64,000 bases of DNA, from IMG/VR virus record IMGVR_UViG_3300034157_000063; one strand, 5' to 3'. The DNA is from a virus (lineage: Duplodnaviria > Heunggongvirae > Uroviricota > Caudoviricetes). The notes under the pieces are model-generated. The model saw only the letters and a program-made list of their open reading frames with translations. It did not search any database and had not been told where the DNA came from. Shown here piece by piece: positions 1 through 63,878 of this stretch (the first letter of the stretch is position 1; every line of letters starts with the position of its first letter). Made by a program: the position numbers and the translations under genes.

Positions 1-318
1 ATGGATAATTACATAAAAGATAAAGACCCTTTTTATACGTTCTTAAAAAAGTTCATTGCTGATAATTCAAAGATGAATGATGACTATCGAATTGTGTATA
101 CGGAAATTGTTGAAGACATCTATCCAGTTTTAAAAGATATTGGGCAACCTATTAAATTGAATATGCCTGCTAAACAGACTTTTACTGATAATCAGCTAGA
201 GCTGTTGTGTTTTATTCATTATCGTTTGAAATATGATACAACACCTGTTGACGAATCAGCTAGGTTTATATTTTTACAAGAAGCCAATAAAAGAATGGAA
301 GAATACTTAAATGAATGA
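1..318 (+). CDS. hypothetical protein (possibly 5'-truncated by the window edge)
   Basis: 105-aa ORF whose end overlaps the start of the next gene. Confidence 0.6.
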   Translation: MDNYIKDKDPFYTFLKKFIADNSKMNDDYRIVYTEIVEDIYPVLKDIGQPIKLNMPAKQTFTDNQLELLCFIHYRLKYDTTPVDESARFIFLQEANKRMEEYLNE

Positions 319-955
319 ACTCTGTAATATTGTCAGTTCGACATTGTTTGAACAGACTGCTGATCTCAATCACAGTCAATATAAAAAACTCTCTACGGAT
401 ACGACTAACATCGTGTTTAATGTGCCTTATTTAACCATGTCGATTATTGAAGAACCTGAACGGTGGGTGTTTATTATCAAAATGACAGTTAAAGATAATA
501 GAGATTTCTTTGATACAATGAAAATGAATGGATTTATCTTTAAACATGACATTGAAAGTGATTTAAGAGAAAAATTCGAACCTATTCATGACCAAAAAGA
601 TCTGATTGCTGCTAAATTTAATCTTCATGTAAACTATGTCATTGAGCACATGTTTTACTTTACAAAAGAAAATGATCTATATGAACAATGGTCAACCTGC
701 ACTCATGATATCAAGGGTGCCTATTTATTCATAAAAGTTCAAAGTGATACCAATAGTACACCCATTTACACCTATTTTGGATATCACAATCAAAACTTAA
801 TACATAAGACCTTTAAAACGCTTCATAATTATGAATTTTGCGTTATTTACCTGCAGCAGAGGTTCTATGAAAAGGGTAACTTATCCATTTGTGATGAGAT
901 CACCTATGATAATGTTGATCGATACTTTGAATTATTGAATATGGTTGAAATTTAA
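311..955 (+). CDS. orphan protein with C-terminal MxxI tag
   Basis: 214 aa, ends YFELLNMVEI. Confidence 0.8.
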   Translation: MNELCNIVSSTLFEQTADLNHSQYKKLSTDTTNIVFNVPYLTMSIIEEPERWVFIIKMTVKDNRDFFDTMKMNGFIFKHDIESDLREKFEPIHDQKDLIAAKFNLHVNYVIEHMFYFTKENDLYEQWSTCTHDIKGAYLFIKVQSDTNSTPIYTYFGYHNQNLIHKTFKTLHNYEFCVIYLQQRFYEKGNLSICDEITYDNVDRYFELLNMVEI

Positions 956-976
956 AAAATTAGCGTTTGTCTACTT

Positions 977-1765
977 TTAAATATTTTCCATTTTTATAAC
1001 TGATATTTTATTTTTAATCATTTCTTTATCTTCAATGTTTGTAAAGTACTCATAAGCAGCTTTAAATCCTTCGGCTGTTTTTACTTTTTGAGTAACCATG
1101 TAATCAAATAGGTCCGTCATTGCAACACTCCCCATTTCAATATAATTCAACAGATTAATAAACATCTTATCCTGTGCTAATTGAGCTTCGTTAACATTAA
1201 GTTTTGTTAAGCTAAAATAATTTTCTGGGTTTGGTTTCTGTTCCCAGTAATTATACTCCATATTTAAGGTTATTGTTTCGTCTTTAAGTGTATAATTAAA
1301 ATCGACAACCGATGTCGTGTCATACTCTTCATTTTCGTAGATATAATGACGAATAATACTACGATAACTGACTTCGTATGAATCAATTTTAAAATCATCA
1401 TAGAAATTAATATAAATTGAATCAGGGTATGTGTCTTTCAATGGTAAATCATTATACAAGGCCCAATCAGAAAAAAAGACATCACTACTGTTAAGCAATA
1501 ATTTATTGTTAGAATCATATTTAAAAGAGTACGTAAAACACAATTCATTAAAGGGACTCTTTGCATAAATCATGATAGAATATAGGTTTCCATTGAGCTT
1601 ATCAAAAACGCTTAGTCTAGCTTCGGATTCAAATTCATAAGCATTTATATCAACTTTACAGACATGTTTAGCCACATCAATAGACACTTCTATTAATTTT
1701 GCTGTATCTGACTCATTAACTGTAATAGAATCTTGTTTAAAATCAGTTTTAATAGAATACATCAA
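977..1765 (-). CDS. orphan protein with C-terminal MxxI tag
   Basis: 262 aa, GAGG RBS upstream, ends ISVIKMENI. Confidence 0.8.
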   Translation of the reverse strand: MMYSIKTDFKQDSITVNESDTAKLIEVSIDVAKHVCKVDINAYEFESEARLSVFDKLNGNLYSIMIYAKSPFNELCFTYSFKYDSNNKLLLNSSDVFFSDWALYNDLPLKDTYPDSIYINFYDDFKIDSYEVSYRSIIRHYIYENEEYDTTSVVDFNYTLKDETITLNMEYNYWEQKPNPENYFSLTKLNVNEAQLAQDKMFINLLNYIEMGSVAMTDLFDYMVTQKVKTAEGFKAAYEYFTNIEDKEMIKNKISVIKMENI

Positions 1766-1883
1766 TCAACCTCGCTTCTAGCGTTTTTACCTATGTTAAT
1801 ATGGTTTTAACGAGTTTTCAGTATATCAAAAAATAAGAAAAAGTTCAAGAAATAAAAAACAACCCGGAGGTTGTTTGATTTTG

Positions 1884-2795
1884 CTATGCAGTTAGTTTAT
1901 TTCTTGATTTCGGTTTTTCAACAACAGGGGATTCATCAGTAGCTTTCAATTTTGATTTGATCGCTGCTAGATTTTTTTCATCCGCTATGTCTGAATACCT
2001 ACTGGCCGCTGTGCCATGTTTAATGTTATCGTAAACCATCTCATCAATCACTTCATTTCCAGAAATGAACTCTAATTCATAAGCTTCTATAATCGTCCTG
2101 TTTTCAGAAACAAAATCATTTAATAACTTTTCAATTTCAATCATTTCATCTAAACATTCTTCTTCAAGCAAATCTTCATCGTCATCACAATCAGATAACA
2201 ACTCATCATATTTCTCAGCCATGTCAGACATCAAACACATCATGCTTCCATGAATATCAGACGCTGAACCTAAAACAAATTCATAATCATGACCAGAACC
2301 AACTATTAATCCTTCTACTCTTTCGTAATCAATTTCTAATGTATCGAGTGCAGCAATAACGTCGCTGACACACTCACCATCGAATGCTCCACCTACTAAA
2401 ACCTTAGATTCCTGAGCTTTTAGTTCTTTTTGCCATTCAGTTATTTCAATCACATCTTCTTCCCCGTGATAGTCACGAGTGCCTTGACACCAATCAATAT
2501 TTCTAGTTTCTTCTGGATAGCCATTATCTTCGTCATTAGGATCTCGATACCATGCATATCCATAAGTATGCACATCGAGTTGTATTCCTTTATTTTTGCA
2601 CATGGATTCAAGTAGTTCATACTCATGATTGAGTTCATAATCTTCGAAAAGTGTGATGATGATTTTATCAAGTTCTTCGGTTGATGCCACGAAATCTAAG
2701 ACTTTGCTCATACATTCTTCAAAATTAGTGTTATGAAGATCTCGTAATGGACCTTCCCAGTAGCTTTCGAAATGTTGCAACAATAATACTTTCAT
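1884..2795 (-). CDS. divergent cysteine-hydrolase (isochorismatase/nicotinamidase-like) protein with acidic C-domain and Lys-rich tail
   Basis: N-terminal strand KVLLLQHFE; VLVGGAFDGECVSD resembles the catalytic-Cys loop of isochorismatase-fold enzymes; tail KPKSRNKLTA. Confidence 0.4.
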   Translation of the reverse strand: MKVLLLQHFESYWEGPLRDLHNTNFEECMSKVLDFVASTEELDKIIITLFEDYELNHEYELLESMCKNKGIQLDVHTYGYAWYRDPNDEDNGYPEETRNIDWCQGTRDYHGEEDVIEITEWQKELKAQESKVLVGGAFDGECVSDVIAALDTLEIDYERVEGLIVGSGHDYEFVLGSASDIHGSMMCLMSDMAEKYDELLSDCDDDEDLLEEECLDEMIEIEKLLNDFVSENRTIIEAYELEFISGNEVIDEMVYDNIKHGTAASRYSDIADEKNLAAIKSKLKATDESPVVEKPKSRNKLTA

Positions 2796-2875
2796 TTAAA
2801 TCTCTTTATTTTTATTATAGTATACCATAAACAAAAAAACCACCAAGTGGTGGTCTTTAAACGAGTATGAAATAA

Positions 2876-3959: not shown

Positions 3960-4631
3960 ATGAGTTCGGAATATCAAAGAAATTATTATATGCAGGTGCT
4001 AAGAGAACGACTTGTGTATGATAAAGAAAATTATGAATTGACAGTATCTCCAGTGAGAACGTCTAACCATAACATTCAATTGATGTTCAAAGGTTTTTAT
4101 ATAGATATGGATATGAAAATGATTCTTGTTATTGAAGGAGAGAAACTAGTTCTTTTTTTTGATGACAAATCAAAAATTCAACGGGCTGACCGCGTATTCA
4201 ATATCGGTGTAAAGGGTGAACTCGATAGACAAATATTGAACCAAATCGAAGTCATTACTAATCAACTTAAATTTGTCAATTACTTTTTGTTTGATAATAG
4301 GCAATATGCAACAGATAACAATTATAATTCAGTTGATTTTAAAATTAACACACCCAATGACATTCTTAAATTCTCAAAAGAACTTAAACCATTTATGCCT
4401 ACCCATTGCTTGGATAGCAAAATTATTGTTAGGTTTATGCTTAATGATGATTTCACAAGATTTGAACCACATTTTTTTGTAAATTCAAGAATTGATGGAA
4501 ACTTATACTCAGGGACACCAGAAGAAGTTATTAACCATTTGTTAGTAGCCTATGCTTGTGAGCCACTTAATAAAAAATTAGAAGACTTAACGTTAAGAGA
4601 TCATACTCTATTAGCAATGGTGAAAATATGA
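3960..4631 (+). CDS. orphan protein with C-terminal MxxI tag
   Basis: 223 aa, ends HTLLAMVKI; TGGTATAAT and GAGG upstream. Confidence 0.8.
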   Translation: MSSEYQRNYYMQVLRERLVYDKENYELTVSPVRTSNHNIQLMFKGFYIDMDMKMILVIEGEKLVLFFDDKSKIQRADRVFNIGVKGELDRQILNQIEVITNQLKFVNYFLFDNRQYATDNNYNSVDFKINTPNDILKFSKELKPFMPTHCLDSKIIVRFMLNDDFTRFEPHFFVNSRIDGNLYSGTPEEVINHLLVAYACEPLNKKLEDLTLRDHTLLAMVKI

Positions 4632-5332
4632 ATGATGTAAAATTAAATAACATACCAGATAACATACCTGAAGAAATTTTCGAAAAAGTTTTATCTGCAC
4701 TTGAATATAATGTTAAGGCGATGGGTAAAGATATTATTTTGGAAAGTTTAAGTTGTCCTAACGAACACTTGTACGAAATTTATTTTAATCTGAGTAAAGA
4801 CGGTGAGGTCACAGAAGATTACTATAATTTGATGCGTTCTGCTGAATTGGACGAGAATGAATCTCCTGATGAGTTTAATTTAATTTATTATGACCGATAT
4901 AGCATTATTAATTATATGAGTAATTTTTTAACGATGTCTGATTCTTTTCTGGGCGTATTACGAAACTATTATGAAGAGTTCAGTGAACTTTATAAATCCT
5001 TTTTGGGCATTGAGATTACTTCAACTAAACCAGAAACCTTGGAAGATATGATTGATTCGATGTATTATGATGGTGATAACTATTTTCTTAGAACTGTTAT
5101 CGTTGATGATGTGCATGAAAATAAAATCATGATAATTGTAGACCCTATGTTAAATATTGAAACGAAAACCTTCTTTTTTAAATTTAGATATTTCATTGGG
5201 CATGACCAGTATGCCAACTTTGAAGAAATGAAAGCTGGTTTTATTAGCAAATATGTGACACTGCCAGAAGGTGAAACGCCGGAATATTTTTGGAAACTTA
5301 CTACAGACGATAATAAAAAGGAAGATCAATGA
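4628..5332 (+). CDS. orphan protein, paralogue of 5329..6009 but without the tag
   Basis: Shares PE..ED....YDGDN[YF] block with the next gene. Confidence 0.75.
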   Translation: MNDVKLNNIPDNIPEEIFEKVLSALEYNVKAMGKDIILESLSCPNEHLYEIYFNLSKDGEVTEDYYNLMRSAELDENESPDEFNLIYYDRYSIINYMSNFLTMSDSFLGVLRNYYEEFSELYKSFLGIEITSTKPETLEDMIDSMYYDGDNYFLRTVIVDDVHENKIMIIVDPMLNIETKTFFFKFRYFIGHDQYANFEEMKAGFISKYVTLPEGETPEYFWKLTTDDNKKEDQ

Positions 5333-6009
5333 AAACTACACTCAGTAAAGAAGAAGTTGCACAAGAACTTTTGGTAATCATGAAAGAAAATATTATCTCT
5401 GATCTACCTTTAAAACATGTAAAGGTTAAATTAAATCGTTCTGAGGATTTTTTACTTCTGGGTTTTGTTGATGAATATTCATATATTTTATCGAATGACA
5501 CCATTTTCTTTTCACCAGAAGACGATGATTATGAAGACGATGTTTTCCTTATTGATTGTTATAGAAAGCAAGGCTTTTTAGATATTGAAAAATATTTCAA
5601 TATTACAGGAAAAGAAACCATCCTTGAGTTTTTTTGTAGAGTGTATGATGAAGTTCATTCAATCTATAAATTTGCTTATGGTGAAAAGCACACAGGTGTT
5701 AAACGTCCAGAAAAAATAGATGATATTTTGTATTATACTCAATACGATGGTGATAATTTTTGTTTCGAACTGAATGCATACGCTGATCAGCTTGGACATG
5801 AGTTTACAATAAGAATGTATCCAATTGTTAACTTACAAAAGAGAAGAATTGAAATAGATTATAGAATTCTTTCGGGGGATGTTGAATATTACGACTACAA
5901 TCAGTCTATTGCTGATCTTTTTGATAGTGTTATTTTTTCGAAGATTGGTAAAAATAAAGAAGACCTTACTCCCGAAGATTCTACGGTTCTTCAAATGTTG
6001 AATGTATAA
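5329..6009 (+). CDS. orphan protein with C-terminal MxxV tag
   Basis: 226 aa, ends STVLQMLNV. Confidence 0.8.
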   Translation: MKTTLSKEEVAQELLVIMKENIISDLPLKHVKVKLNRSEDFLLLGFVDEYSYILSNDTIFFSPEDDDYEDDVFLIDCYRKQGFLDIEKYFNITGKETILEFFCRVYDEVHSIYKFAYGEKHTGVKRPEKIDDILYYTQYDGDNFCFELNAYADQLGHEFTIRMYPIVNLQKRRIEIDYRILSGDVEYYDYNQSIADLFDSVIFSKIGKNKEDLTPEDSTVLQMLNV

Positions 6010-6030: not shown

Positions 6031-6678
6031 ATGACTATAAAGCCTGTAATATCTCCTGAAACATTGGATTCTTTAATGCCACTTTTTTTAAAGACTTTAA
6101 ATACTATTTACTCGAGTAAGGCAAAGCTATCTGATATGGATAACTACGATAGAACCGCCGAGGAAGAAGATCGTATTATTTTTTATAAAAAAGAAAATGA
6201 AACCGATTCGATGTTTAAATTTGTTCATAACCATTATGCAACACCAAATAAACATAATGTCAGTTTTCAAAATTTTGATATGGATTTAGATTTGTATATG
6301 AACAATTTCTTAAATCTCTGTTCTGTGTATAGTGATAATTCTTATTTTTTTGTAGAGACAAGACTCTATTTAGATCGTATTTCAAATAGTTGGTTACTTA
6401 ATAAGTTGTTCCCACCAAAAGTAGCTAATGACAACATCAAAATAGAAATAGAAATACATTTTAACCAATACCTAACAGGAGCGTTTTATTTAGCCTGCCA
6501 GTATGTTAATGGCATCATGATTATACAAAATAAAAAAGATGTTCATCATTTTTTTGAAACAGTTACCAATAATTTGAAAGAACTTTTACATTTGACTGAA
6601 GAGATTAATTTAGACCATACTCAAACAGAAGCCGACTTTAAAGAAAGTACACTGATATTACACATGGCAACTATTTAA
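6031..6678 (+). CDS. orphan protein with C-terminal MxxI tag; paralogue of 6713..7393
   Basis: Shared FDMxLDLY, FxET, NKLFxPKxAxDNIK; ends LILHMATI; ATG after GGAG chosen as start. Confidence 0.8.
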   Translation: MTIKPVISPETLDSLMPLFLKTLNTIYSSKAKLSDMDNYDRTAEEEDRIIFYKKENETDSMFKFVHNHYATPNKHNVSFQNFDMDLDLYMNNFLNLCSVYSDNSYFFVETRLYLDRISNSWLLNKLFPPKVANDNIKIEIEIHFNQYLTGAFYLACQYVNGIMIIQNKKDVHHFFETVTNNLKELLHLTEEINLDHTQTEADFKESTLILHMATI

Positions 6679-6712: not shown

Positions 6713-7393
6713 ATGACCGATAAAAAAACGCTTGATAAGAAAATTAAAAGTATGTATAAAAATATGTATTTGTCCAAGAAGTCTATCAATTCTTTAAAAC
6801 CTAGCATAAAAAATGGTATGAATAACATTTATTCAGCCAATGTAACATTATCGAGAATTATCTCAAATTCTGCTGTGACTGATGATGATATAGAGAATGG
6901 TGTTTTTTTTGTTAAGAGTAATGGACCAACTTATGAACTTTTCCACGTCGTTCATCGACATTACTCGACAGAATTACAAAATATAACAAATTTTAGCAAA
7001 TTTGATATGAATTTGGATCTATATTTTAACAATCTAATCGCATTCTATTCATTGTATAATACAGATGTCCATCTTTTTATAGAAACAAAATTTTATTTTG
7101 ACAAAGCCTATAATATTTCAATTATGAATAAATTATTTTCACCAAAATTAGCAGATGATAATATAAAACTAACAGTTCATTTTCAATCTGGTGACAAGTT
7201 CCTTGGTAAAGTTGATATTCTGTGTCGTTTTGTTGATGGAAAAATCAAAGTAAAAAAGAAAGAATTTCTTGTTAATTCATTAAAAGATTTAGCCAATTAT
7301 TACAATGTAGGAGATGTAATGGATGTAGATTTTACACTTCCCTCCCATGAGTTTTCTGAACAGCTTTTCTTGTTGAAAATGCTTACTATTTAA
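6713..7393 (+). CDS. orphan protein with C-terminal MxxI tag
   Basis: 226 aa, ends LFLLKMLTI. Confidence 0.8.
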   Translation: MTDKKTLDKKIKSMYKNMYLSKKSINSLKPSIKNGMNNIYSANVTLSRIISNSAVTDDDIENGVFFVKSNGPTYELFHVVHRHYSTELQNITNFSKFDMNLDLYFNNLIAFYSLYNTDVHLFIETKFYFDKAYNISIMNKLFSPKLADDNIKLTVHFQSGDKFLGKVDILCRFVDGKIKVKKKEFLVNSLKDLANYYNVGDVMDVDFTLPSHEFSEQLFLLKMLTI

Positions 7394-7471: not shown

Positions 7472-8026
7472 ATGTATTTAGATACCGATTTTTTAAGAAA
7501 AAACCATCAAATGATACATTTCTTTGGTTTGGGTTTTGTCCAGCTAAAATTAGACAATAATTTAAGAATGCATTTCTATCACCCAGACGTTAATCCCATA
7601 GTCAACGTAGAAGAAATTCATAATCATAGATATGACTTTATTTCAACTATCATGGCGGGAAAAATCACACAAGAGTTGTTTACTATACATTCGGGTCTTG
7701 GTGATTACATTATGGTTGAAGAAAATTGCAAACAAGAAAAAATAGTAAAACCACAAAAAGTGAATGTGATTGTTATTCCAGAGAGTGTTCAACATTTTAG
7801 AAAAGGTGACAGCTATACATCGTTAAGTCATGAGTTTCATAGGATATCAACAGACTTTGCCATTACACGTTTGTATCGTGGGGCCGTAGTTCTTGAAAAT
7901 GCTTCGGTAATTAAAGAGAAAAACGCAGAAACAGTCTGTCCATTCAGTAAACAGTTAACAAAAGAAGAATGCTGGGAAATCGTTGATAGTTGTATCAATA
8001 TTAGTAAAGCAACTGTTCACAATTAA
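7472..8026 (+). CDS. cupin/double-stranded beta-helix metalloprotein
   Basis: RMHFYHP, IHNHRYDFISTIMAG (HxH) and distal EFHRI. Confidence 0.55.
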   Translation: MYLDTDFLRKNHQMIHFFGLGFVQLKLDNNLRMHFYHPDVNPIVNVEEIHNHRYDFISTIMAGKITQELFTIHSGLGDYIMVEENCKQEKIVKPQKVNVIVIPESVQHFRKGDSYTSLSHEFHRISTDFAITRLYRGAVVLENASVIKEKNAETVCPFSKQLTKEECWEIVDSCINISKATVHN

Positions 8027-9616: not shown

Positions 9617-10042
9617 GTGATAAAGATGAAACAGAAAAAATTAGATGGAAACACATTACTCAGCAGAGAAGATTTTAAAACAGCCTGTTTTGAAAGAGAT
9701 AATCACACCTGTATATTTTGTGACAAACCATCTGTTGATAGTCACCATATCATCGAACGAAAATTATTTGATGATGGCGGATATTACTTAAATAACGCTG
9801 CCAGTGTTTGTGAATCACATCACATCGAATGTGAAAAGACTTTGATTACTGTTGAGGCTGTTTATGCGGCGGCTAACATTACCGATCCTAAACGACCTGA
9901 GTATTTTGAAACTGGTGTGGTCTATGATAAATGGGGAAATATTATTGTTTCTGATGTCAAGCGTATTCCCGGTCTTTTGTTTGAAGATACTGCAGTTCAA
10001 AAGATATTTAAGAATTTAGGCACTATTTGGATGTTTTATTGA
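9617..10042 (+). CDS. HNH endonuclease-family protein
   Basis: RDNHTCIFC...DSHHII...NNAASVCESHH. Confidence 0.75.
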   Translation: MIKMKQKKLDGNTLLSREDFKTACFERDNHTCIFCDKPSVDSHHIIERKLFDDGGYYLNNAASVCESHHIECEKTLITVEAVYAAANITDPKRPEYFETGVVYDKWGNIIVSDVKRIPGLLFEDTAVQKIFKNLGTIWMFY

Positions 10043-10857: not shown

Positions 10858-11946
10858 ATGACAGTAATAGTAGATCAAACACTTAAAAATTCTAATAATC
10901 ATAATATAAATTTGAATTTAATAGAAACTTCAAGAAAAAAAATAATTTTTATTAATCAAGAAATGAGTAAAGAAACTTTTTTGGAAACCATTAAAATGGT
11001 TGAATCTAGATATACTAATTATTCAACTGAATTTGAACAGACAATTATTAATATTGACAGAAAATTTGATATATTTTTAAATAAAATATCGAATAGCCAA
11101 CTGTTTCAAATACTTATTCATGACGAAGATAAAGCATGTTTATCTATAAAATTTATTCCAAGCCGAAATATAAATAATTCTTTTTATATTCTAAATAAAA
11201 ATAATGATATTGTCGTAATTGTTGATTATGATTTTATTAATTTATTCGACAATCCAACACTTTCTTTAAATAACATTCATATTAATTTTTTAAGAATAAA
11301 TGAGTTACGTGATATTAGGAATTTACATTATGACCATAAAATAGAATTTTTTCACAATAAACTGGCCGACAACACAGATTTAAGAAAGAAATTAGAATTC
11401 CAATTAAACGCTATTAATAACATGAAGAAAAACTTGTGTATACACATGTTAGTTTTACCTGAAAAATTTCATTACAAGATGATATTAGAAAATAATTTAA
11501 AACTCAATTACAGGCTTTTAACAAGGTATACAGTAGGATCTGGCATGGGTTATCAATATGTGCCTCCAACTTCTTATATTAGTGATGATTTAGAACATTT
11601 TTATAAATATATGGATTTGTTTTGGCAAAGAAAATCTGTAACTGAACCTAATAAAATTATGACCAATACAAAAATAGTTCAACGTTATTTAAGAAAATAT
11701 AATATAGTAGATAGCCATCTTTTACTGCAGCCAGCAGAGATACTGAAACCTGACTTTGATACCGTTCGCTTGTATTTTTGCAATGATAGGTTTTACATTA
11801 AAATAACAGACACGTTGAATCTATCAACACTTTACTCAGAAAAAATTTATACTGATTCATCAGCGTTTAGCCATCTGTACACACTGTATGATTTTGTTAA
11901 GAAAAAAGATGAAATAATATTATTGTTCGAGATGATGGAAATTTAA
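10858..11946 (+). CDS. orphan protein with C-terminal MxxI tag
   Basis: 362 aa, AGGAGG RBS, ends ILLFEMMEI. Confidence 0.8.
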   Translation: MTVIVDQTLKNSNNHNINLNLIETSRKKIIFINQEMSKETFLETIKMVESRYTNYSTEFEQTIINIDRKFDIFLNKISNSQLFQILIHDEDKACLSIKFIPSRNINNSFYILNKNNDIVVIVDYDFINLFDNPTLSLNNIHINFLRINELRDIRNLHYDHKIEFFHNKLADNTDLRKKLEFQLNAINNMKKNLCIHMLVLPEKFHYKMILENNLKLNYRLLTRYTVGSGMGYQYVPPTSYISDDLEHFYKYMDLFWQRKSVTEPNKIMTNTKIVQRYLRKYNIVDSHLLLQPAEILKPDFDTVRLYFCNDRFYIKITDTLNLSTLYSEKIYTDSSAFSHLYTLYDFVKKKDEIILLFEMMEI

Positions 11947-13276: not shown

Positions 13277-14125
13277 ATGAGTGATTTTAAGGAAATTAAT
13301 CTAAAAAAAATAGGTAATCCTACTATCTACAGACATAAAGATTCATTTATTAAAGCATTGGAAGACCGGCTTAATAATGAAAATTTAAGTGTAACTGTCA
13401 ATTGGAGAAAATTTGAAGACACCAGAGCCGATGTATTGATTGATAATACTGTCGTTGGAATGATAGTCTCTTATTACGAAAACCTAGAAATCCCAGATGA
13501 TGTTATTCTTTATTTCATCCCAAATATAGATTTCTTTAAATTTGTTAACATAGACAATATTGAACACTTCATTAAGTTGTCTAATCAATTTCTGGAATCG
13601 TATGTTGAAAACATTTCAGTAAATAAAAATGTAAATGAAGTAAAATTGAAAAAATTTGAAGATTTTGATTTAGATCTGAGTGCTTCTCAAAAATCAGAAC
13701 TCTCTGGTATGGTTTTTAATAGGAAGATTGAATGCACAGAAAAATCAAGATTTGTATTCAATTTGATTAAAGATGGTTCATCATTTAAGCTTGTTGATGA
13801 CTTCAAAATGAGTATTAAAAATCGAAGTGCAACTATGTTTGACATCATTGGAACTCAAGATTACGCTATTTTTGAATCCAATAGAATGTTCAGTGCATCA
13901 TTGTTAAAAAATGGTGATACTTACTATCTTAATCATGAATATTCTGATCCACTGCATTCCCTAAGTTTTAATAAAAATGACAGTATCCCAGATATGAAAA
14001 GATTCATTTCTGTTCTCTTCTATTATTCAATTATGAAGACAAATAAACTTGAAATGCCGAATGTTGATGATTTTATTAATAGGTTTGATGACTACAAACA
14101 AGTCATTGAAATGTCAATCATATAA
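13277..14125 (+). CDS. orphan protein with C-terminal MxxI tag
   Basis: 282 aa, ends YKQVIEMSII. Confidence 0.8.
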   Translation: MSDFKEINLKKIGNPTIYRHKDSFIKALEDRLNNENLSVTVNWRKFEDTRADVLIDNTVVGMIVSYYENLEIPDDVILYFIPNIDFFKFVNIDNIEHFIKLSNQFLESYVENISVNKNVNEVKLKKFEDFDLDLSASQKSELSGMVFNRKIECTEKSRFVFNLIKDGSSFKLVDDFKMSIKNRSATMFDIIGTQDYAIFESNRMFSASLLKNGDTYYLNHEYSDPLHSLSFNKNDSIPDMKRFISVLFYYSIMKTNKLEMPNVDDFINRFDDYKQVIEMSII

Positions 14126-14208: not shown

Positions 14209-15882
14209 ATGAAAATTGCAATCGCTCAACTCAACTATAAAATTGGTGATTTTGCTGGCAACTATGCCAAAATTGAACACGCTGTTCTTGAAAAGAAAGC
14301 AAAAGTTGAGATGGTAGCATTCACAGAACTCTGCCTCAGCGGTTATTTTCCCCGTGACCTTATCCTTAATGACAAGTTCATGGAAATGCAGGACGTTTAT
14401 TTCGATAAAGTGAAAAAACTTTCTAAATCTGCTAAAACTCCTATCATGATTGGTTATATCGAACGTAACTCTGCAGAAACAGGCAAACGTTTCTTTAACT
14501 CCCTTGCTGTGTTCAGTAAAGGCGAGCAAATTTTCAACTACCGCAAACAATTGCTGCCTACTTACAACATCTTTGATGAAAAACGTTACTTTGAAGAAGG
14601 TAGTGCAGATCAGCCTATGGTCTTTAACTTGAATGGTCATCGTGTGGGTGTTCTTATCTGTGAAGATGGTTGGGATGACTCTGCACCTAATAAGATGTAT
14701 AACGCTTCCCCAGTTAAGGCTCTTAAAGCACAGAACCCGGAATTCGTTGTGAGTATTAACGCTTCTCCAAGTAACATCAATAAAGCAGAAGACCGTCTTG
14801 AAGTCTTTTCAAAAGCCGTTTCAGAAATTTTGAAAGTGCCCTTTGTGTATGTGAACCAAGTCGGTGCTAATGACCAAATTGTTTTTGATGGGGCTAGTTT
14901 TATCATGAACAGTAAAGGTATTCTCAGTGGTCATCTTGAATTCTTTGCTGAACAAGTCTCCGTAGTTGAAATGGATAACCTTGAATATATTTCACAACAC
15001 AAGATCAGCAAGTTTCCAACAGCCAATGAACTCTTCTATAAGCAAACTGTGATGGGTCTTCGTGACTATATCGGCAAGTGTGGCTTTACCAGCGTCGTGG
15101 TTGGTTCATCTGGCGGTATTGATAGTGCTTTGACACTAGCTCTTGCTGTGGATGCTCTTGGGGCTGAAAACGTTAAAGCAATTACTATGCCGTCGCATTA
15201 CTCATCAAGTGGTAGTGTGGATGACTCAGTTATCCTGTGCAATAACTTGGGTGTGAAACTGTATACCCGCCCAATCGGTCGAGATTTTGATGTAACGGTT
15301 GAAGAGTTTAAAAAGAGTTTTGGTGAAGAACCTAAAAAAATCACCATCGAAAACATTCAATCACGTATTCGTGGTCGTATCTTGATGGAATACTCTAACA
15401 ACACAGGTGCTATCGTTCTTTCAACAGGTAACAAGTCAGAACTGTCAGTCGGTTTCTGCACATTGTATGGCGATACTAACGGTGGTTTGAACTTGATCGG
15501 TGACTTGTATAAAATGCAAGTGTATGCACTGTCTCGTTACTACAACGAATTGCATGGGGTGGAACTTATTCCAGAAACCATTATTGTGAAAGAGCCTTCT
15601 GCGGAGTTGTCTCCGGGTCAAGTGGATACCGACTCACTTCCACCATACCCTGTTCTTGATGCCATCTTGCGTCTTTATATTGAACATGATTATTTGGATG
15701 AGAAAGAACGTCTTGAAGAGCTTGCTCTGTTGAAAGATGTTAAGCAAGAAGTTATTGATAAGGTAGTTCGTTTGGTTCACAACTCAGAATTCAAACGTCA
15801 TCAAGCACCACCTATCATTCGTGTGCAATACAGATCGTTTGGTGTCGGTCGCCAAATCCCTATTGTCGCTGTTCAGTATTGA
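14209..15882 (+). CDS. nadE: glutamine-dependent NAD+ synthetase
   Basis: Nitrilase domain with E-K-C triad (FTELCLSGY, YRKQLLP, ICED) fused to synthetase domain (SGGIDS, ENIQSRIRG, TGNKSE, PSAEL). Confidence 0.96.
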   Translation: MKIAIAQLNYKIGDFAGNYAKIEHAVLEKKAKVEMVAFTELCLSGYFPRDLILNDKFMEMQDVYFDKVKKLSKSAKTPIMIGYIERNSAETGKRFFNSLAVFSKGEQIFNYRKQLLPTYNIFDEKRYFEEGSADQPMVFNLNGHRVGVLICEDGWDDSAPNKMYNASPVKALKAQNPEFVVSINASPSNINKAEDRLEVFSKAVSEILKVPFVYVNQVGANDQIVFDGASFIMNSKGILSGHLEFFAEQVSVVEMDNLEYISQHKISKFPTANELFYKQTVMGLRDYIGKCGFTSVVVGSSGGIDSALTLALAVDALGAENVKAITMPSHYSSSGSVDDSVILCNNLGVKLYTRPIGRDFDVTVEEFKKSFGEEPKKITIENIQSRIRGRILMEYSNNTGAIVLSTGNKSELSVGFCTLYGDTNGGLNLIGDLYKMQVYALSRYYNELHGVELIPETIIVKEPSAELSPGQVDTDSLPPYPVLDAILRLYIEHDYLDEKERLEELALLKDVKQEVIDKVVRLVHNSEFKRHQAPPIIRVQYRSFGVGRQIPIVAVQY

Positions 15883-21487: not shown

Positions 21488-22141
21488 ATGGGTAAGGGTC
21501 ATCGTAAATACATTAGTCTAATGGAACTGCATAATGACAATGTAGAAAAGCAGCTTATTGAAAAAGATTCCTACTGGGGTTATTTGGAGATTCATGGCTG
21601 TACAGAAGATGACTATCTTTATTATGAAGATTGTGCAGAGTCCTATTTTTTAGATAAACATATCTATTTGGTGGGTGATTTTAATGAAAAGCATCAACTC
21701 GTAAAACATGAATTGCCTACGCCTGTACTAAAATATCACAATGAAGTCTATTACGAAATTGACTTCAATGATCTCAATAAAGAATCAAATCATCCAATGA
21801 TTTCGTTACTAATGGAACACTTTGATATTTTATCCACAGTTAAGATGTTTAAAATATACTTTATGTTTCATCAACGAGCATGGAGCAATAGAGAAGTGCC
21901 TGAGTTTGAGGTTATCTTGTCTGTTGATAAGAATGGTATGCTTTACCATAGACCATCTGTTTTCAAATTAAGTACTATTTTGGACTTGAAAGCTCCAGAG
22001 TATGCTGATACTGCTTTTAAGAAAATGTTGTTTCATGATATTGAACGCCGTCCAAGAGTTTATGAAGGTTTTCATGATATTGAAGATCTTATCAACAACT
22101 TTGAAACCTATTCATGGATGGTTGACGCAATTACTTATTGA
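21488..22141 (+). CDS. orphan protein with variant C-terminal tag
   Basis: 217 aa, ends FETYSWMVDAITY. Confidence 0.7.
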   Translation: MGKGHRKYISLMELHNDNVEKQLIEKDSYWGYLEIHGCTEDDYLYYEDCAESYFLDKHIYLVGDFNEKHQLVKHELPTPVLKYHNEVYYEIDFNDLNKESNHPMISLLMEHFDILSTVKMFKIYFMFHQRAWSNREVPEFEVILSVDKNGMLYHRPSVFKLSTILDLKAPEYADTAFKKMLFHDIERRPRVYEGFHDIEDLINNFETYSWMVDAITY

Positions 22142-48338: not shown

Positions 48339-49118
48339 ATGGAAAATAACACAAAAAAGATAGTCGATAGTTACATAGATGAACTTAATAAAGAGAACAT
48401 GTCTTACAGTACTGAAATGGTTGTTCGTAACAGTGATAGTAAGTTCCCTTATCTTGGATTATCTGTGTATGACGAATTGACCAATGTTAAAGAACTCATA
48501 TTACTCAGTAACAAAGAACATCCAGAAACATTAGATGATGTTAAGTTCTTAGTCGTTGAGATCTATAAAATACCAACGCCGGAAGGTCATCACTTTGGCG
48601 TTCCGTCATTCCTTTATGTTGATAAAGTTACAAATGATGAACAGATTTCCCGTTATACACTTACCGATGATGATATTAAGACCTACGCTAACCCTGTAGA
48701 TGCTGTTATTTCTGCTATAAAAAATTTCGAATTAGACAATTATCAAAGAAAAATGTCTGTAGACAATATTGCGGAAAATATTAATGCCCTATCTGATGGT
48801 GATCCTTTCAATGATGAAATTGCTGGTTTGGTATTGGCACAAGCTGTTACAAAGTCATTAAATACTGAAAATGTAAATTTATTTGAAACTGCAATTGACC
48901 TAGATGTTCCGAAATTAGTAGTTTCATGTCCTAAATATGACAACTGGGCTGATATAGTTAATACAGGCGAAGAGGGTAGTCTTCATAATCAAGTGGTTTC
49001 TTTTACTAGTGAAAACTTTGCAAAATTTGTTGATGAGACATTAGATACCGCTAGGGTCTATTGTTTGAATACATTAAAAGATAAAAAAAACAACAATCAT
49101 AAAATAAAGCCTTCGTAA
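48339..49118 (+). CDS. orphan protein with Lys-rich tail
   Basis: Acidic body; ends KKNNNHKIKPS. Confidence 0.75.
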   Translation: MENNTKKIVDSYIDELNKENMSYSTEMVVRNSDSKFPYLGLSVYDELTNVKELILLSNKEHPETLDDVKFLVVEIYKIPTPEGHHFGVPSFLYVDKVTNDEQISRYTLTDDDIKTYANPVDAVISAIKNFELDNYQRKMSVDNIAENINALSDGDPFNDEIAGLVLAQAVTKSLNTENVNLFETAIDLDVPKLVVSCPKYDNWADIVNTGEEGSLHNQVVSFTSENFAKFVDETLDTARVYCLNTLKDKKNNNHKIKPS

Positions 49119-49187: not shown

Positions 49188-49886
49188 ATGGATTTTGATA
49201 ATTTTGTATTTACTAAGCGAAATGATAACTACACGTTATCGCTTCTTGACTACCTGCAGCTTGTTCAGGAATCGAGTCAACATGAATCCATTAGAACACT
49301 AAAATACCATACTCGTAAGGTGGATGTTAATGGCGTTCAAGATATTTCTACACCTGAAATCTATATTCAAACAGAACAACACAAAATCCATGTGTTCAAT
49401 CAAGCTGATACTACGCATGAAGCAGCTTATTCATTTACAGGAGCAGGGAATTTTCTTTATTACATTGCCAAGTATCCTACGATAGATCGTGTTCTCACTC
49501 AAATGGAATTCTTACGCCGTATGCATGATGAGTTGCATTCTAGCATGGGTGTTGACAATCCTTTTCTGGATAACCGCACTAGTAGCTATAAAGCAGTTTT
49601 GAAAAATGTTGATGGTGTTATTAAGTTATTTCATGTGCTCAACTATGACACTGGATTTAGAGCTGTGTTTGATCAATCCTTTAACATTGTTGATGTTTAC
49701 TTTCGTCATCCGAATTTAGAGAAGTTTAGAACACGTTCACTTGAAGATAAAAAAGTTATCTTTGCTTTTTTTAATGTTTACTTTCGAAGCCCTTTGCTGA
49801 GAGAAGAACTTTGCAAAAAGTATGATGAATTATCTTTTGAGGAAATTCGTGATTATCTTACTATTTATAGAATGGTTAATATTTAA
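49188..49886 (+). CDS. orphan protein with C-terminal MxxI tag
   Basis: Ends YLTIYRMVNI; C-terminal half resembles 50730 (FD...N......F, K...FAFF..YF). Confidence 0.8.
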   Translation: MDFDNFVFTKRNDNYTLSLLDYLQLVQESSQHESIRTLKYHTRKVDVNGVQDISTPEIYIQTEQHKIHVFNQADTTHEAAYSFTGAGNFLYYIAKYPTIDRVLTQMEFLRRMHDELHSSMGVDNPFLDNRTSSYKAVLKNVDGVIKLFHVLNYDTGFRAVFDQSFNIVDVYFRHPNLEKFRTRSLEDKKVIFAFFNVYFRSPLLREELCKKYDELSFEEIRDYLTIYRMVNI

Positions 49887-50729: not shown

Positions 50730-51449
50730 GTGGATAAATTAGAAGTCGCCCAGTTAATCAAATCATACATTTTATCTTTTGAAGATGTGAAGTGTGAAGA
50801 CGATGATGGCTTTTTAGATTTATACATTCATGAAAAGGCTAAGCCGGGTGGTTTGATTCATTTAAACAATGAAAATGATTATACGAATAAAACACTATTC
50901 AGTTATGAGAAATATGAAAACTATCATATCTTTTTTATGAACACTGCCGGTGGTGTAAATAATCTCTTCAAAATAGTGGATATGGCGACTCATCCATCTA
51001 GTAAAAATGCATTAACATACCATGAACGCATTCTGAGTAATTTAAAATTTGTTCGTTCTTATTGTTCTGCATTGGAAGAAGCAATCCCGACCAAATACAA
51101 GTTACTGCAAGATGAACGACTGGATAGGTTTAGAATTGATCTTGATGACACTTCTGGTCATTTTGTGATTAGTCATACTACGGCCTTCTTTTCATACCAT
51201 TATTCGGCTGTTTATGTGACCTTTATATTTGACAAAAATCATAATTTGATTAATATAGGATTTGAAGATTCTCATGTAAAAGAAGTCATGAAAGACTTAA
51301 CTATTGAGAAAAAAGCCAAAGCTTTTGCTTTTTTTATTGATTACTTTATTGAGAAAGATTTTAGAGAACTTGTTAATATAGATTATAAAGAAGTCAATAT
51401 AGATAATCTTGATGATTATTTGTTATTGCACGCCATGAAAGAGGTTTAA
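50730..51449 (+). CDS. orphan protein with C-terminal MxxV tag
   Basis: TGTTATAAT, GAGGA, GTG start; ends YLLLHAMKEV. Confidence 0.8.
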   Translation: MDKLEVAQLIKSYILSFEDVKCEDDDGFLDLYIHEKAKPGGLIHLNNENDYTNKTLFSYEKYENYHIFFMNTAGGVNNLFKIVDMATHPSSKNALTYHERILSNLKFVRSYCSALEEAIPTKYKLLQDERLDRFRIDLDDTSGHFVISHTTAFFSYHYSAVYVTFIFDKNHNLINIGFEDSHVKEVMKDLTIEKKAKAFAFFIDYFIEKDFRELVNIDYKEVNIDNLDDYLLLHAMKEV

Positions 51450-51450
51450 C

Positions 51451-52104
51451 ATGTATTTTGTAGATGGAATGGATTTGTCAACTATATTTAAGGGAGTATT
51501 TCCTTATTATACCCAAGGATTTAGGCTAAAAAAGATTAATCGCAGTGAGTTAGAAGGTTATGATGCCTTGAAAGAATCTCTTTCTACACCTTTGGATCAT
51601 AATATGTCTTACGGTAGGTTGGTTAATAATTTTGGCGAAGAGTTAGGAATGTTTCAAACTGTGAATAATAAGACTAAAGTCTTATTTAACAGCGAATTCA
51701 TTTTCTCTCAGATAAACAATGTTGACAAGACGGTTAATCATTATTACTTGACGTTTGCTTTTTACTTGAATAACGATTTCACCTTTAAATCATTTAGTTT
51801 TGATTTTTTGTATTCATTTAAACCCTACACTGACAATGGTTCTGCAAAGGATAGGTATAGTAATCATATTGAGCTTATTTTAGAAGATGACTTTGTAAAA
51901 ATTACTACAGATGAAGTCGATTATGATTTAAAGGGAACCCATACTATATTTGAAATTTTACCTGATTTTGTGTTGGCATGTATTTATAATGCGAATAATG
52001 ATATTGTAAAGGATGACCATTTTGATCTTAATCTTATCCTTCAAGGTCAAAAAATTGATGATAAAAAACGATGTAAAGATTTGCTTAGTATGATCTCTTA
52101 TTAA
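51451..52104 (+). CDS. orphan protein with C-terminal MxxY tag
   Basis: Ends KDLLSMISY. Confidence 0.78.
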   Translation: MYFVDGMDLSTIFKGVFPYYTQGFRLKKINRSELEGYDALKESLSTPLDHNMSYGRLVNNFGEELGMFQTVNNKTKVLFNSEFIFSQINNVDKTVNHYYLTFAFYLNNDFTFKSFSFDFLYSFKPYTDNGSAKDRYSNHIELILEDDFVKITTDEVDYDLKGTHTIFEILPDFVLACIYNANNDIVKDDHFDLNLILQGQKIDDKKRCKDLLSMISY

Positions 52105-52204: not shown

Positions 52205-52279
52205 CGCAGGGTGGAGAAGTGGTATCTCGTTAGGCTCATAACCTGAAGATCGTGGGTTCAATTCCCGCCCCTGCAACCA
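52205..52279 (+). tRNA. tRNA-Met(CAT), initiator-like
   Basis: Cloverleaf, CTCATAA loop, C1:A72 mismatch, TTCAATT T-loop, encoded CCA. Confidence 0.93.
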
Positions 52280-52464: not shown

Positions 52465-53058
52465 ATGTTTAAAACTATTTCTATTGCTTTATCACTATTA
52501 ACAGTTGGGATTGCATCGGCTGACAGCAATTTCAAAGCCGGTCAATATGAGTTTGTTAAAATGGCTGTAACGCCTGACAATCGAGTAGAAGGCTATTATC
52601 ATGAAGTCATGGGTGAAGGTGTTACCAGAACGTGTACGTTCTTTTTCGAAGGGGCTATTGTTCCTGATGGTTCTACTTATGTAAAAACATGGTCAGGCAC
52701 CAGTAAGATTGATGGTGTTGTTGATAATCAACTTGATTCACTTTTTATGGAATTAGCTGATGACCATCCGGGTTGTTCAAGTGTTGGTGCAAGTCAAGCT
52801 AAATATGGTTTGAATTTCTCATTACTTGAAAAGAAACCTTGGATCGGATTAGGTGTTATCACAGAAGCTAAGGTTTATCTAAACAGTGCTCCTATTGCTG
52901 GCACAGAAGGTAAAGTCTATATTGTAGAAGATGACGTATTTAGTATTATTGAAGTTAAAGATGACTATACATCAATTGAATACATTAATGATGATAACAA
53001 GTCTTTTACAGGTTGGATAAAAACATCTAGTTATTCTGGCATTAAAGATGCAAAATGA
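52465..53058 (+). CDS. exported protein with C-terminal SH3-like domain
   Basis: Signal peptide (ASA|DS); C-terminal YIVEDD.F.IIE...Y..IEY......TGWI. Confidence 0.6.
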   Translation: MFKTISIALSLLTVGIASADSNFKAGQYEFVKMAVTPDNRVEGYYHEVMGEGVTRTCTFFFEGAIVPDGSTYVKTWSGTSKIDGVVDNQLDSLFMELADDHPGCSSVGASQAKYGLNFSLLEKKPWIGLGVITEAKVYLNSAPIAGTEGKVYIVEDDVFSIIEVKDDYTSIEYINDDNKSFTGWIKTSSYSGIKDAK

Positions 53059-53067
53059 TGGGTTGAA

Positions 53068-53826
53068 ATGAAAATTCCTTTATTATTGCTGCAGATCTGG
53101 CCGTTATTTAAATTTGAAGTTATTCGAGCTTTTAACTTTGTTAAAAGTAATGATGTTGCTAAATTATTTTTGCTTATTTGTATTACAATGAATTCGTCAA
53201 AATTGACATCAGATGTTGTGAATGATTATTTAATTCTAACAGAATTATCAGTAAAAGCTGTATCCTTGGTTTTAAGTTTTTTTGTTTTTGTTGGTATGAT
53301 GATTACGTTGTATTACTTGAGTTTTAATTTAAAGAAAACGATTTATCAAATGCCTAAAAAATATTATATTTTTTTCATTAGTGTCAATTCTATAAAACTA
53401 TTAATGACTTTTTGTACACCTAATAATTTTATAGCCATTATATCTTTTGAGGTTTTTTATATTTTTGTAATGAGTGCGTTTGTTTTTGATTTAAGAAAAA
53501 TAGCTTTACAACAACGTGAAAATTTGCATGTATCTATTTTTAATGTTGTTCATAAGAATACTGGTTTGGTTATAATCGCCTCTACACCAGATAGTTTTTT
53601 TTCTAAGAGAAATAAGATTTTTACTAATTACATGATAGGCTTCAATAAAAACATTAAAACATGGTTAGTATTAGGTGTTTTTATAAAAATGGATAAAGAA
53701 GGTATTTATTTAAAAAATATTTATATGACGTATAGTGAAGTTGTCATGTTTAATAATAGTTTCGATAAAAAAATAATTGATTACACCAAGAATGAATTAG
53801 ATACTGTCATTATGTATTTCATTTGA
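53068..53826 (+). CDS. multi-pass membrane protein with C-terminal MxxI tag
   Basis: Several hydrophobic segments; ends ELDTVIMYFI. Confidence 0.7.
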   Translation: MKIPLLLLQIWPLFKFEVIRAFNFVKSNDVAKLFLLICITMNSSKLTSDVVNDYLILTELSVKAVSLVLSFFVFVGMMITLYYLSFNLKKTIYQMPKKYYIFFISVNSIKLLMTFCTPNNFIAIISFEVFYIFVMSAFVFDLRKIALQQRENLHVSIFNVVHKNTGLVIIASTPDSFFSKRNKIFTNYMIGFNKNIKTWLVLGVFIKMDKEGIYLKNIYMTYSEVVMFNNSFDKKIIDYTKNELDTVIMYFI

Positions 53827-58036: not shown

Positions 58037-58112
<76 letters not shown>

Positions 58113-58501: not shown

Positions 58502-58575
58502 GCGGAATTGGCATAGTGGCTGTGCTCCAGCCTTCCAAGCTGGCTACACGAGTTCGATCCTCGTATTCCGCTCCA
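58502..58575 (+). tRNA. tRNA-Gly(TCC)
   Basis: GCGGAAT/ATTCCGC acceptor, CCAGC-CTTCCAA-GCTGG anticodon arm, U73, CCA. Confidence 0.95.
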
Positions 58576-62343: not shown

Positions 62344-62364
62344 ACATCTTATTATATTGCTCAT

Positions 62365-63078
62365 ATGGAAATTATCATGAACGAAAAAACTTTAACAGAC
62401 GATCTTGCTTTATTTAAAGTTCGTGCCACCAATATTATGGCTGATTTTTTTATAAAATGGCAATCATCATTTGTTTATGATAAGGTTTATTTTGATGAAG
62501 CACAAATTCAACCTACCAGTCTTAAAGAAAGAATTTACACACTTAGTGTTAAGGTGGTTGATGAAAATAGATTTAAAGAAACGAAAGTGGTGGTCACAGG
62601 TAATTTAGATGATGATGATGAGTTGTCTCATCGTTATACAACTACATTGACAGTCAATGGTGATAAGATTCATGGTTTTAAAAGAGTCGATTTTGATCCA
62701 TATTCATTGGGTTCTGATTTTAAAAAATTCTATGCAACATTTTTTAATTATAATGTGTTGGATAATCGTTACAATAGATTTTTTCTTACTTTTGATGAAC
62801 AAGCTAATATATCAAATATTCGCATTTTTTTTGACGCATCAAAAGATAACAATACTTTTACAATTGACCGATTAATTTATAATTATGAAGATATTATTAT
62901 TTTAAGCCGTTACAATCTTCTGAATTCTGGTTTCAGTAGTTATTGTAATTTTAAATTTCTTTGGTACTGCACGAATATTAGAAATGTTATTAACGAACAA
63001 AATTTGATAGATGCATATCAGGAATATATCAAAAATATGGATAGCTATCATATATTGCTTAAAATGGGAAAAATTTAA
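62365..63078 (+). CDS. orphan protein with C-terminal MxxI tag; paralogue of 63177..63878
   Basis: Shared FK.RA, WQ.SF..DK.YFDE.Q, VVTGNL, NF.FLW..TNIR; ends YHILLKMGKI. Confidence 0.85.
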   Translation: MEIIMNEKTLTDDLALFKVRATNIMADFFIKWQSSFVYDKVYFDEAQIQPTSLKERIYTLSVKVVDENRFKETKVVVTGNLDDDDELSHRYTTTLTVNGDKIHGFKRVDFDPYSLGSDFKKFYATFFNYNVLDNRYNRFFLTFDEQANISNIRIFFDASKDNNTFTIDRLIYNYEDIIILSRYNLLNSGFSSYCNFKFLWYCTNIRNVINEQNLIDAYQEYIKNMDSYHILLKMGKI

Positions 63079-63100
63079 TAAGATAAGTAGATTACACTTC

Positions 63101-63151
63101 AAGAGCTTTGGCTCTTTTTTTATTGAACTTATTTTCATTTTGTAGTATAAT
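63101..63151 (+). repeat. terminator-promoter cassette, copy 2
   Basis: AAGAGC-TTTG-GCTCTTTTTT; TTGAAC-N17-TATAAT. Confidence 0.75.
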
Positions 63152-63176
63152 ACGGCTATTATATTGAGCTTGGAGA

Positions 63177-63878
63177 GTGACTATGACTGAAGAAATAAGT
63201 GCGACTGAAGTGGAAGTATTCAAAAAGCGAGCATCTGAAATTTTGGATAATTTTTGTAAAGAATGGCAGCATTCATTCTATAATGACAAAATCTACTTTG
63301 ATGAATATCAACTTGATTTCCCAAGTGCAGGCGTGTATACATGGAAAGTTATTGCTGTTAATATATCAACGCTAAAAAAGATGGCTATTGTGGTGACAGG
63401 TAACTTAGGAAAGGCTGATTCCTTACAACATGTTTATACGATTTCAGTGGCAGTTGATGGTGCGAGAGTTCGTGATTTAAAAAAAGATGATTTTAACCCG
63501 CTTGAGCTTCGTGATAAGTTTCATACCTTTTATACATCTATCCTTAATTATAAAGAAGTTGATAAACATGCTTATGGTTTATATCTTGTCTTTGATGAAG
63601 ACGCTAAAATTTTAAGTGCCAACACGACATTTACTATTTATAAAAACGATGAAGCCTGTCGTGCAGACCATTTTGTCTACCATGTCAGTGATTTAGATGT
63701 TTTAATCGGTTACAACCTTGTTCATACAGGTATTATTAACTATCGTAATTTTACATTTCTATGGAATCACACCAATATTCGGATTGTAATGAATGAAGGT
63801 GTTTTTTTTAATGCTTACAAGCTATACACTGAGGATATTGAACGTTACCATTCATTACTTCAAATGGAACGAATTTAA
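63177..63878 (+). CDS. orphan protein with C-terminal MxxI tag
   Basis: Ends YHSLLQMERI. Confidence 0.85.
   Translation: MTMTEEISATEVEVFKKRASEILDNFCKEWQHSFYNDKIYFDEYQLDFPSAGVYTWKVIAVNISTLKKMAIVVTGNLGKADSLQHVYTISVAVDGARVRDLKKDDFNPLELRDKFHTFYTSILNYKEVDKHAYGLYLVFDEDAKILSANTTFTIYKNDEACRADHFVYHVSDLDVLIGYNLVHTGIINYRNFTFLWNHTNIRIVMNEGVFFNAYKLYTEDIERYHSLLQMERI

Follow-up and report, generated by a model that had tools for sequence, protein, structure and literature searches.

The DNA considered here, called the window throughout, is a stretch of 64,000 nucleotides from the IMG/VR virus record IMGVR_UViG_3300034157_000063, and its proteins have been placed on a JGI contig of 1,917,244 bp. A large group of orphan proteins of this element end alike, with the motif [LIV]-x-x-M-x-x-[ILVY]-COOH, in which Met is the fourth residue from the free C-terminus (-4, counting the last residue as -1). 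An initial annotation of the sequence had listed 18 open reading frames (ORFs) with this ending, here called the tag, plus two variants, and postulated that they form a library of variable proteins sharing one docking peptide. A six-frame ORF call recovers all 18 with the ends given for them (Table 1); the starts listed for 6031, 12641, and 49188 are the first ATG within slightly longer open frames. Both variants, 19529 and 21488, are real as well. For comparison, use was made of the relative lineages L139, L140, L145, and L146, of the near-identical strain L006, and of G001, a 437-kb relative that is itself a fragment.

The excess of Met at -4 is far beyond chance. Among 76 non-overlapping ORFs of the window, it is found in 18, versus 0 to 6 Met at each other position from -1 to -30 (binomial P ~3e-12), and the full motif followed by a stop codon ends 17 of the 76, versus 0.14 expected. 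Inside proteins, the motif occurs at the chance rate (29/18455). Given Met at -4, other positions are enriched independently, and consequently the test is not circular. The last residue is I, V, L, or Y in 18/18 Met(-4) ORFs versus 17/58 others (P 4e-8), and an aliphatic residue (L/I/V) lies at -7 in 17/18 versus 9/58 (P 1e-9). Tyr at -10 (7/18 versus 1/58) and Asp or Glu at -15 (11/18 versus 5/58) behave in the same way, and a leave-one-family-out matrix lacking the Met column scores tagged ORFs at a median of 6.9 bits and untagged ORFs at -11.8. The comparison with background, which the initial annotation had called for, gives 19/944 Met(-4) ORFs and 1/944 full motifs in unrelated viral contigs; the same count in G001 gives 101/452 and 64/452. 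Scans of viral contigs with DNA patterns returned mostly chance matches and no second tagged lineage.

The tag is also common well beyond the window. In G001, Met(-4) is present in 102/552 ORFs versus 14 expected, and a stricter filter leaves about 84 tagged proteins of 169-408 amino acids in about 70 sequence clusters. Tagged genes there lie together more often than expected (23 versus 13.8, P 0.004). Overall, 16-24% of the genes of the element carry the tag; if this density is even, a 1.9-Mb genome probably encodes 300-500 tagged proteins. As had been claimed, no recognizable enzyme is among them: Pfam yields 0 matches for 81 tagged G001 proteins (E<=0.001) and nothing convincing for a set of 45 tagged proteins. 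PHROG and PADLOC likewise give no convincing match, BFVD gives none at E<=0.001, and the ESM Atlas gives sub-threshold leads only. Transmembrane (TM)-like segments are confined to 53068 within the tagged set of the window, in agreement with the single membrane protein noted initially, and occur in five tagged proteins of G001.

Table 1. Tagged genes, followed by other features, of the window (aa, amino acids; blank cells, nothing recorded)
Position	Strand	Feature	Remarks
311-955	+	Tagged orphan, 214 aa	Met -4 in 6/6 family members
977-1765	-	Tagged orphan, 262 aa; tag at ~977-1024	Met -4 in 6/6 family members
3960-4631	+	Tagged orphan, 223 aa	Remote homologue of 12641 and 5329
4628-5332	+	Tagless paralogue of 5329; charged variable tail, no tag helix	Kept in five lineages; dN/dS 0.19-0.27
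5329-6009	+	Tagged orphan, 226 aa	AlphaFold model
6031-6678	+	Tagged orphan	Paralogue of 6713
6713-7393	+	Tagged orphan, 226 aa
8145-8684	+	Tagged orphan, 179 aa
8762-9610	+	Tagged orphan, 282 aa
10052-10849	+	Tagged orphan, 265 aa	Paralogue of 13277
10858-11946	+	Tagged orphan, 362 aa	Not found at that position in L139, L140, L146
12641-13261	+	Tagged orphan	Remote homologue of 5329 and 3960
13277-14125	+	Tagged orphan, 282 aa
19529-20137	+	Variant, one extra C-terminal residue (Met at -5)	G001 orthologue (56% identical) has Met at -4
21488-22141	+	Degenerate variant, Ala at -4	Ala also in G001 orthologue
49188-49886	+	Tagged orphan	Related to 50730
50730-51449	+	Tagged orphan	Leu at -4 in G001 orthologue
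51451-52104	+	Tagged orphan, 217 aa
53068-53826	+	Membrane protein with TM segments at the N-terminus; soluble C-domain carries the tag	Whole allele replaced versus L006
62365-63078	+	Tagged orphan, first of tandem array	AlphaFold model of family
63177-63878	+	Tagged orphan, second array member	Two more copies beyond window
14209-15882		NadE, glutamine-dependent	91-98% conserved across lineages
29818-30561		Endonuclease I (EndA-like)	80-88% conserved even in distant relatives
31206-34700	-	Intimin/invasin-type inverse autotransporter, several Ig-like repeats	1152-1209 aa among relatives
7472-8026		Highly conserved untagged orphan inside tagged cluster	84-96% in close relatives; no Pfam match
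9617-10042		Highly conserved untagged orphan inside tagged cluster	84-96% in close relatives; no Pfam match
52205-52279		tRNA-Met (CAT)
58037-58112		tRNA-Thr
58502-58575		tRNA-Gly
1884-2795		Lys/Arg-rich-tail gene
25889-26308		Lys/Arg-rich-tail gene
35869-37560		Lys/Arg-rich-tail gene
39586-40434		Lys/Arg-rich-tail gene
48339-49118		Lys/Arg-rich-tail gene

Conservation and form of the tag

A family-weighted logo extends the motif to about 15 residues, with D/E at -15 (66%), L/I/V at -7 (95%), Met at -4, and Ile at -1 (82%). Hydrophobic residues occupy -13, -6, and -3 (about 70%) and also -9, while -2 is mostly polar; the logo from G001 adds Tyr at -1. The resulting consensus is [DE]-x-hydrophobic-x-x-(Y)-x-x-[LIV]-hydrophobic-polar-M-hydrophobic-x-[IYVL]-COOH. 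AlphaFold models of two families both end in a helix that covers this stretch, at residues 225-234 of 237 in the 62365 family (mean pLDDT 85) and at 215-225 of 226 in 5329 (mean pLDDT 77). From logo and models, the motif is predicted to be the recognizable portion of an amphipathic helix that forms the last 15 or so residues.

This ending is kept while the rest of the protein changes. Conservation of the last 15 residues exceeds that of the body in 14/14 tagged families, versus 5/20 untagged ones, and Met -4 is kept in 20 families separable by BLAST. Internal Met, in contrast, survives in only 24% of comparisons of family members that are less than 70% identical. The distance from the tag to the stop codon is fixed, apart from rare extensions by one residue. 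Such extensions, with Met at -5, are seen in L139 (L139:17551-18339) and L146 (L146:14931-15698) as well as in 19529.

It could be argued that the conserved entity is not a peptide but a feature of the DNA or RNA, such as a recombination site, a cassette end, or an internal start codon, or that the pattern is due to chance. Met has a unique codon, and consequently conservation of an ATG alone cannot be assigned to the protein. However, Ile at -1 is encoded by ATT, ATA, and ATC (59/18/7), all six Leu codons are used at -7, and all three stop codons follow the tag. The DNA downstream of the tag stops is not conserved and is unrelated between genes, and a search for an integron cassette or shufflon end found no shared DNA around these stops. 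Furthermore, the remaining positions separate tagged from untagged ORFs even when Met is disregarded, as noted above. Because codons and stops vary freely and the flanking DNA is unrelated, selection must act at the protein level; a DNA-level site is largely refuted, and this family of explanations is hardly credible. The codons, the conservation, and the two models thus bear out the view of the tag as a terminal, helical, protein-level signature that is kept while bodies diverge.

Bodies and turnover of the tagged genes

The initial annotation also held that, beyond a few paralogue pairs, the bodies of the tagged proteins do not align. This is correct in that leave-one-group-out profiles detect no shared signal from -100 to -17 across groups (mean 2.7 versus 2.2 shuffled) and that the profiles of the two modelled families (A1 versus A2) do not match. 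It is not correct for 3960, 12641, and the 5329/4628 family, which are remote homologues, nor for 49188 and 50730, which are related. For 12641, the comparison with the 5329 family covers 152 aligned columns and reaches 94% in HHalign, or 36% without the tail; that with 3960 reaches 84%, or 56% without the tail.

Tagged genes change faster than their surroundings. Median identities of tagged genes versus neighbors are 84 versus 92% in L139, 51 versus 72% in L145, and 43 versus 64% in L146 (P 2e-4). All measurable ratios of nonsynonymous to synonymous substitution (dN/dS) between lineages are less than 0.5 for tagged genes, indicating that these genes are maintained. The tagless gene 4628, whose body is like that of 5329, persists under purifying selection, and hence the last helix is not always needed. 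Copy number varies too: the 62365 array has 2-4 copies depending on the strain and a single copy at the same site of G001. The clearest case of replacement is 53068-53826, whose product is only 49% identical to that of L006 in strains that are otherwise 98-100% identical. The diverged block (window 53047-53826, L006:2700-3482) begins where the upstream gene ends and reaches the last codons of the tag, so that the difference is a gene-sized exchange of the whole allele. The tagged bodies, then, duplicate, are lost, and are swapped as whole alleles.

The replicon that carries the tag

The relatives syntenic with the window are contigs of 1,851,360, 1,843,594, and 1,859,102 bp and one of 520 kb; G001 and a 1.04-Mb contig are more distant. 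The GC content is 32.5% in the window and 29-33% in the group of closer relatives. Among its orphans, the window carries genes for NadE, TilS, HPF, MCP, the invasin, and endonuclease I as well as three tRNAs, of which the one with the CAT anticodon could be Ile2, given the TilS encoded by the element. An NAPRTase gene and a cytidylyltransferase-family gene lie just upstream of the window (L139:1137-3100) and form an NAD salvage set with nadE. Database searches found nothing close to the element: INPHARED holds no match to it (a TilS query gave distant matches only), PLSDB contains nothing close (distant NadE and PncB matches only), no record among E. coli genomes matches its nadE, scans of GTDB did not find it, and the NadE matches in IMG/VR belong to unrelated elements. 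Because of its size and gene content, it looks like an AT-rich, extrachromosomal megaplasmid rather than a phage.

The nearest parallel is provided by the pMEGA megaplasmids of Enterobacteriaceae, which reach 1.58 Mb, have a low GC content, and carry Dot/Icm, ClpXP, and FtsH genes [Guitor et al., 10.1101/2025.09.30.679422]. Common to both are megabase size, low GC, mostly hypothetical genes, NAD metabolism genes, HPF, chemotaxis genes, tRNAs of their own, and tandem multicopy families; the pMEGA-type traits seen in the present element are a length above 1 Mb, an AT-rich and orphan-dominated sequence, NadE, NAPRTase, MCP, HPF, and the three tRNAs. The present element is larger (1.84-1.92 versus up to 1.58 Mb). 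This family of ~1.9-Mb replicons is undescribed and exceeds the published pMEGA plasmids.

Some further observations concern the lineage as a whole. A second class of protein ends, Lys/Arg-rich tails, is found on 62/508 ORFs of G001, none of which is also tagged (partly by definition). Such tails look more like known type IV signals than the tag does, and this class would be the stronger candidate for type IV export. A pairing of tagged and Lys-tail genes as toxin and immunity partners was considered and rejected because Lys-tail genes are not enriched beside tagged genes (4 upstream and 3 downstream, versus 7.2 expected on each side). One protein (L153:3029-4927) has two matches to ART-PolyVal ADP-ribosyltransferases and a Lys-rich tail. 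Finally, the distant relatives L175 and L176 come from runs ERR12320360 and SRR10036037, where they lie on low-numbered Logan contigs, which suggests that these runs are low-complexity or isolate samples and might lead to the host.

Possible roles of the terminal helix

The explanation that we favor, while giving it slightly less than an even chance, is that the helix is a constant dock that joins variable binding domains to one shared partner in the cytoplasm. It is preferred because of the fixed register of the tag to the free C-terminus, the conservation of Met above that of ordinary packing, the survival of a tagless paralogue, the existence of membrane-anchored carriers, and a turnover like that of recognition genes. 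Judging from the logo, the side of the helix with the variable hydrophobic residues -3, -6, -10, and -13 would pack on the body, while the other side, with the nearly fixed -1, -4, and -7 and the free carboxyl group, would dock in the partner. The repertoire would then combine a variable binder with a constant plug, so that diverse targets, such as proteins of a phage, a plasmid, or the host, would reach one machine, most likely an AAA+ chaperone or protease system. Of the library originally proposed, what stands is the terminal helical signature, the very large repertoire without recognizable enzymes, and the presence of both soluble and membrane carriers; the claim that its members come from unrelated families has been weakened.

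Several findings weigh against a dock. There is no gene-wide positive selection by dN/dS. Some distant orthologues have Ile, Leu, Phe, or Ala in place of Met -4, and among the G001 ORFs that show the typical residues at -7 and -1, position -4 is Met in 64, Ile in 8, Ala in 5, and Leu in 3. The remote homologues 12641, 5329, and 3960 are colinear into the tail (HHalign 94%, 84%, and 69%). Body profiles recruit, across clusters at E<0.01, 8/84 tagged but also 6/248 untagged G001 proteins, most of the latter having degenerate tags. Within the lineage, positional orthologues of tagged proteins fall to 20-28% identity, whereas untagged neighbors keep 48-68%; given such drift, a failure to align is weak proof of separate origin. 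Lastly, both models begin with a similar unit of a helix and four strands, weakly aligned to cystatin/NTF2-like folds. This similarity, together with the remote homology, indicates that the shared end may come from shared ancestry.

These results lead to another explanation, in which the tagged proteins are members of an old, very divergent superfamily, or of a few such superfamilies, with the helix closing the fold and function residing in the variable sheet. Alignable families, profile links that go mostly to tagged or degenerate-tag proteins, and the similar starts of the models all allow the helix to be the conserved end of such superfamilies. Both models pass from an N-terminal helix through beta meanders to a helical end and align, at low Z, to the same region of 3wz3_A; the best matches in the PDB are weak (Z 6.7 to a protein of a BLIP/PepSY-like group and Z 6.2 to Med17C) and within the range that the tool calls a common arrangement. 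The clustering of tagged sizes at 170-410 amino acids fits as well. However, a Met that merely packs should exchange with Leu or Ile, as internal Met does, and a fixed distance to the free C-terminus is unexpected for a core helix. The persistence of the tagless paralogue, the lack of a shared signal upstream of -16 across groups, and the unmatched profiles of the two modelled families also speak against a cap, which we consider less likely than a dock, though its main rival. The tagged bodies are alpha/beta proteins that evolve fast and descend at least in part from common ancestors, and they may constitute one or a few very old superfamilies.

A role in export, by which a type IVB (Dot/Icm-like) secretion or conjugation system would deliver the tagged proteins to recipient cells or predators, is less probable and would surprise us. 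The similar pMEGA megaplasmids have genes for Dot/Icm proteins, among them IcmW and a coupling protein [10.1101/2025.09.30.679422], and Dot/Icm substrates use hydrophobic residues at the extreme C-terminus, acidic blocks, and helical motifs, with the RalF-type end, the E-block, and FxxxLxxxK as signals in Legionella [PMC7251119]. Like these, the tag is a short C-terminal feature on hundreds of dissimilar proteins, with an upstream acidic start and a hydrophobic terminus; the hydrophobic residue at -1, present in 18/18 tagged ORFs of the window, is likewise shared with Dot/Icm substrates but is a generic feature. However, the Legionella signals are loose and heterogeneous, whereas the tag has a near-fixed Met -4 and register. 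Its logo shows an acidic -15 and hydrophobic -13 and -9, though with no consensus match to the E-block (EExxE) or FxxxLxxxK. The tag is also predicted to be a folded helix rather than a loose tail, the Lys/Arg-rich class resembles known type IV signals more, and no match to a coupling protein or secretion ATPase lies above the cut-off in G001, a 437-kb fragment.

Alternatively, the tag might be a degron that makes several hundred proteins short-lived through a protease of the element or host. Proteases such as ClpXP, FtsH, and Tsp read hydrophobic free C-termini, and pMEGA elements encode ClpX, ClpP, and three FtsH proteins. Yet an amphipathic helix of 15 residues exceeds what a degron needs, and the consensus is unlike ssrA-type ends, which finish in small nonpolar Ala-Ala, while the tag has mostly Ile at -1 after a mostly polar -2; moreover, there is no ClpX match in G001, again a fragment. 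We regard this role as improbable. More improbable still, and barely worth entertaining, is the suggestion in the initial annotation of a signal for capsid loading or nuclear-shell import, as would suit a jumbo phage. Although IMG/VR lists G001 as viral, the element is ~1.9 Mb and no phage link has been found: four syntenic assemblies of 1.84-1.92 Mb are larger than any described phage genome of which we are aware, INPHARED has no match, and Terminase_6N, the single family tried, has none in the G001 fragment. In addition, membrane proteins carry the tag.

If the helix is a dock, as we prefer, one machine deserves mention. G001 encodes two MoxR-type ATPases, each followed by a gene of the DUF2201 metallopeptidase family (154405-157088 and 159692-162637; L160, L161). 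In the first G001 pair, the ATPase is fused to BRCT and its partner consists of the peptidase domain only; in the second, the DUF2201 partner has a vWA domain, and a tagged gene directly follows. Homologues of this DUF2201/vWA gene, 64-77% identical, are present on the 1.04- and 1.84-Mb contigs. The MoxR/DUF2201 pair is thus a candidate partner, by co-occurrence only. In vWA-MoxR ternary conflict systems, such couples have been proposed to capture substrate peptides [Kaur et al., PMC7159879]. The lineage resembles these in its MoxR-type ATPases with DUF2201 partners, one with vWA; however, the variable parts are fused to vWA/VMAP there, whereas in the present lineage hundreds of unfused proteins, encoded all over the genome, would play that part.

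Other adaptors offer further parallels. The tail of SspB docks on ClpX, and a short C-terminal peptide read by an AAA+ machine is the logic proposed here, but SspB differs from the tag in sequence and is one adaptor rather than a library. The ankyrin/PRANC (F-box-like) proteins of poxviruses and the F-box adaptors of eukaryotes form large families in which the body varies and a terminal module stays constant, as do the tagged proteins. However, the latter have no ankyrin or other Pfam match (45 and 81 scanned) and are modelled as alpha/beta meanders, and the module here is one 15-residue helix at a free C-terminus in a bacterial setting. The logic of one terminal peptide carried by many proteins is, in this sense, known from Dot/Icm substrates and PRANC/F-box proteins. 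The boldest version of the docking proposal, in which each genome encodes 300-500 interchangeable recognition proteins, some soluble and some membrane-anchored, that all dock by a Met-x-x-Ile-COOH helix on one AAA+/peptidase machine of the element that removes or remodels the bound targets, is speculative and on balance doubtful.

The motif appears to be new, as had been supposed. No description was found in a literature whose coverage lacked most subscription journals; 'MxxI' returned only oligosaccharyltransferases and one glycosyltransferase paper, and the pMEGA paper describes no such tag and makes no mention of 'C-terminal' [10.1101/2025.09.30.679422]. The feature itself is real and large in scale, and the mechanism is a proposal.

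In giant mobile elements, most genes are orphans, usually without a handle; here, one terminal signature groups about one-fifth of the genes into a single class. Should the helix prove to be a dock, the class would represent in bacteria what adaptor libraries are in eukaryotes, and its ending would serve as a portable tag. A structural helix defines instead a new and very large protein superfamily. Under both readings, the tag marks an undescribed family of ~1.9-Mb replicons.

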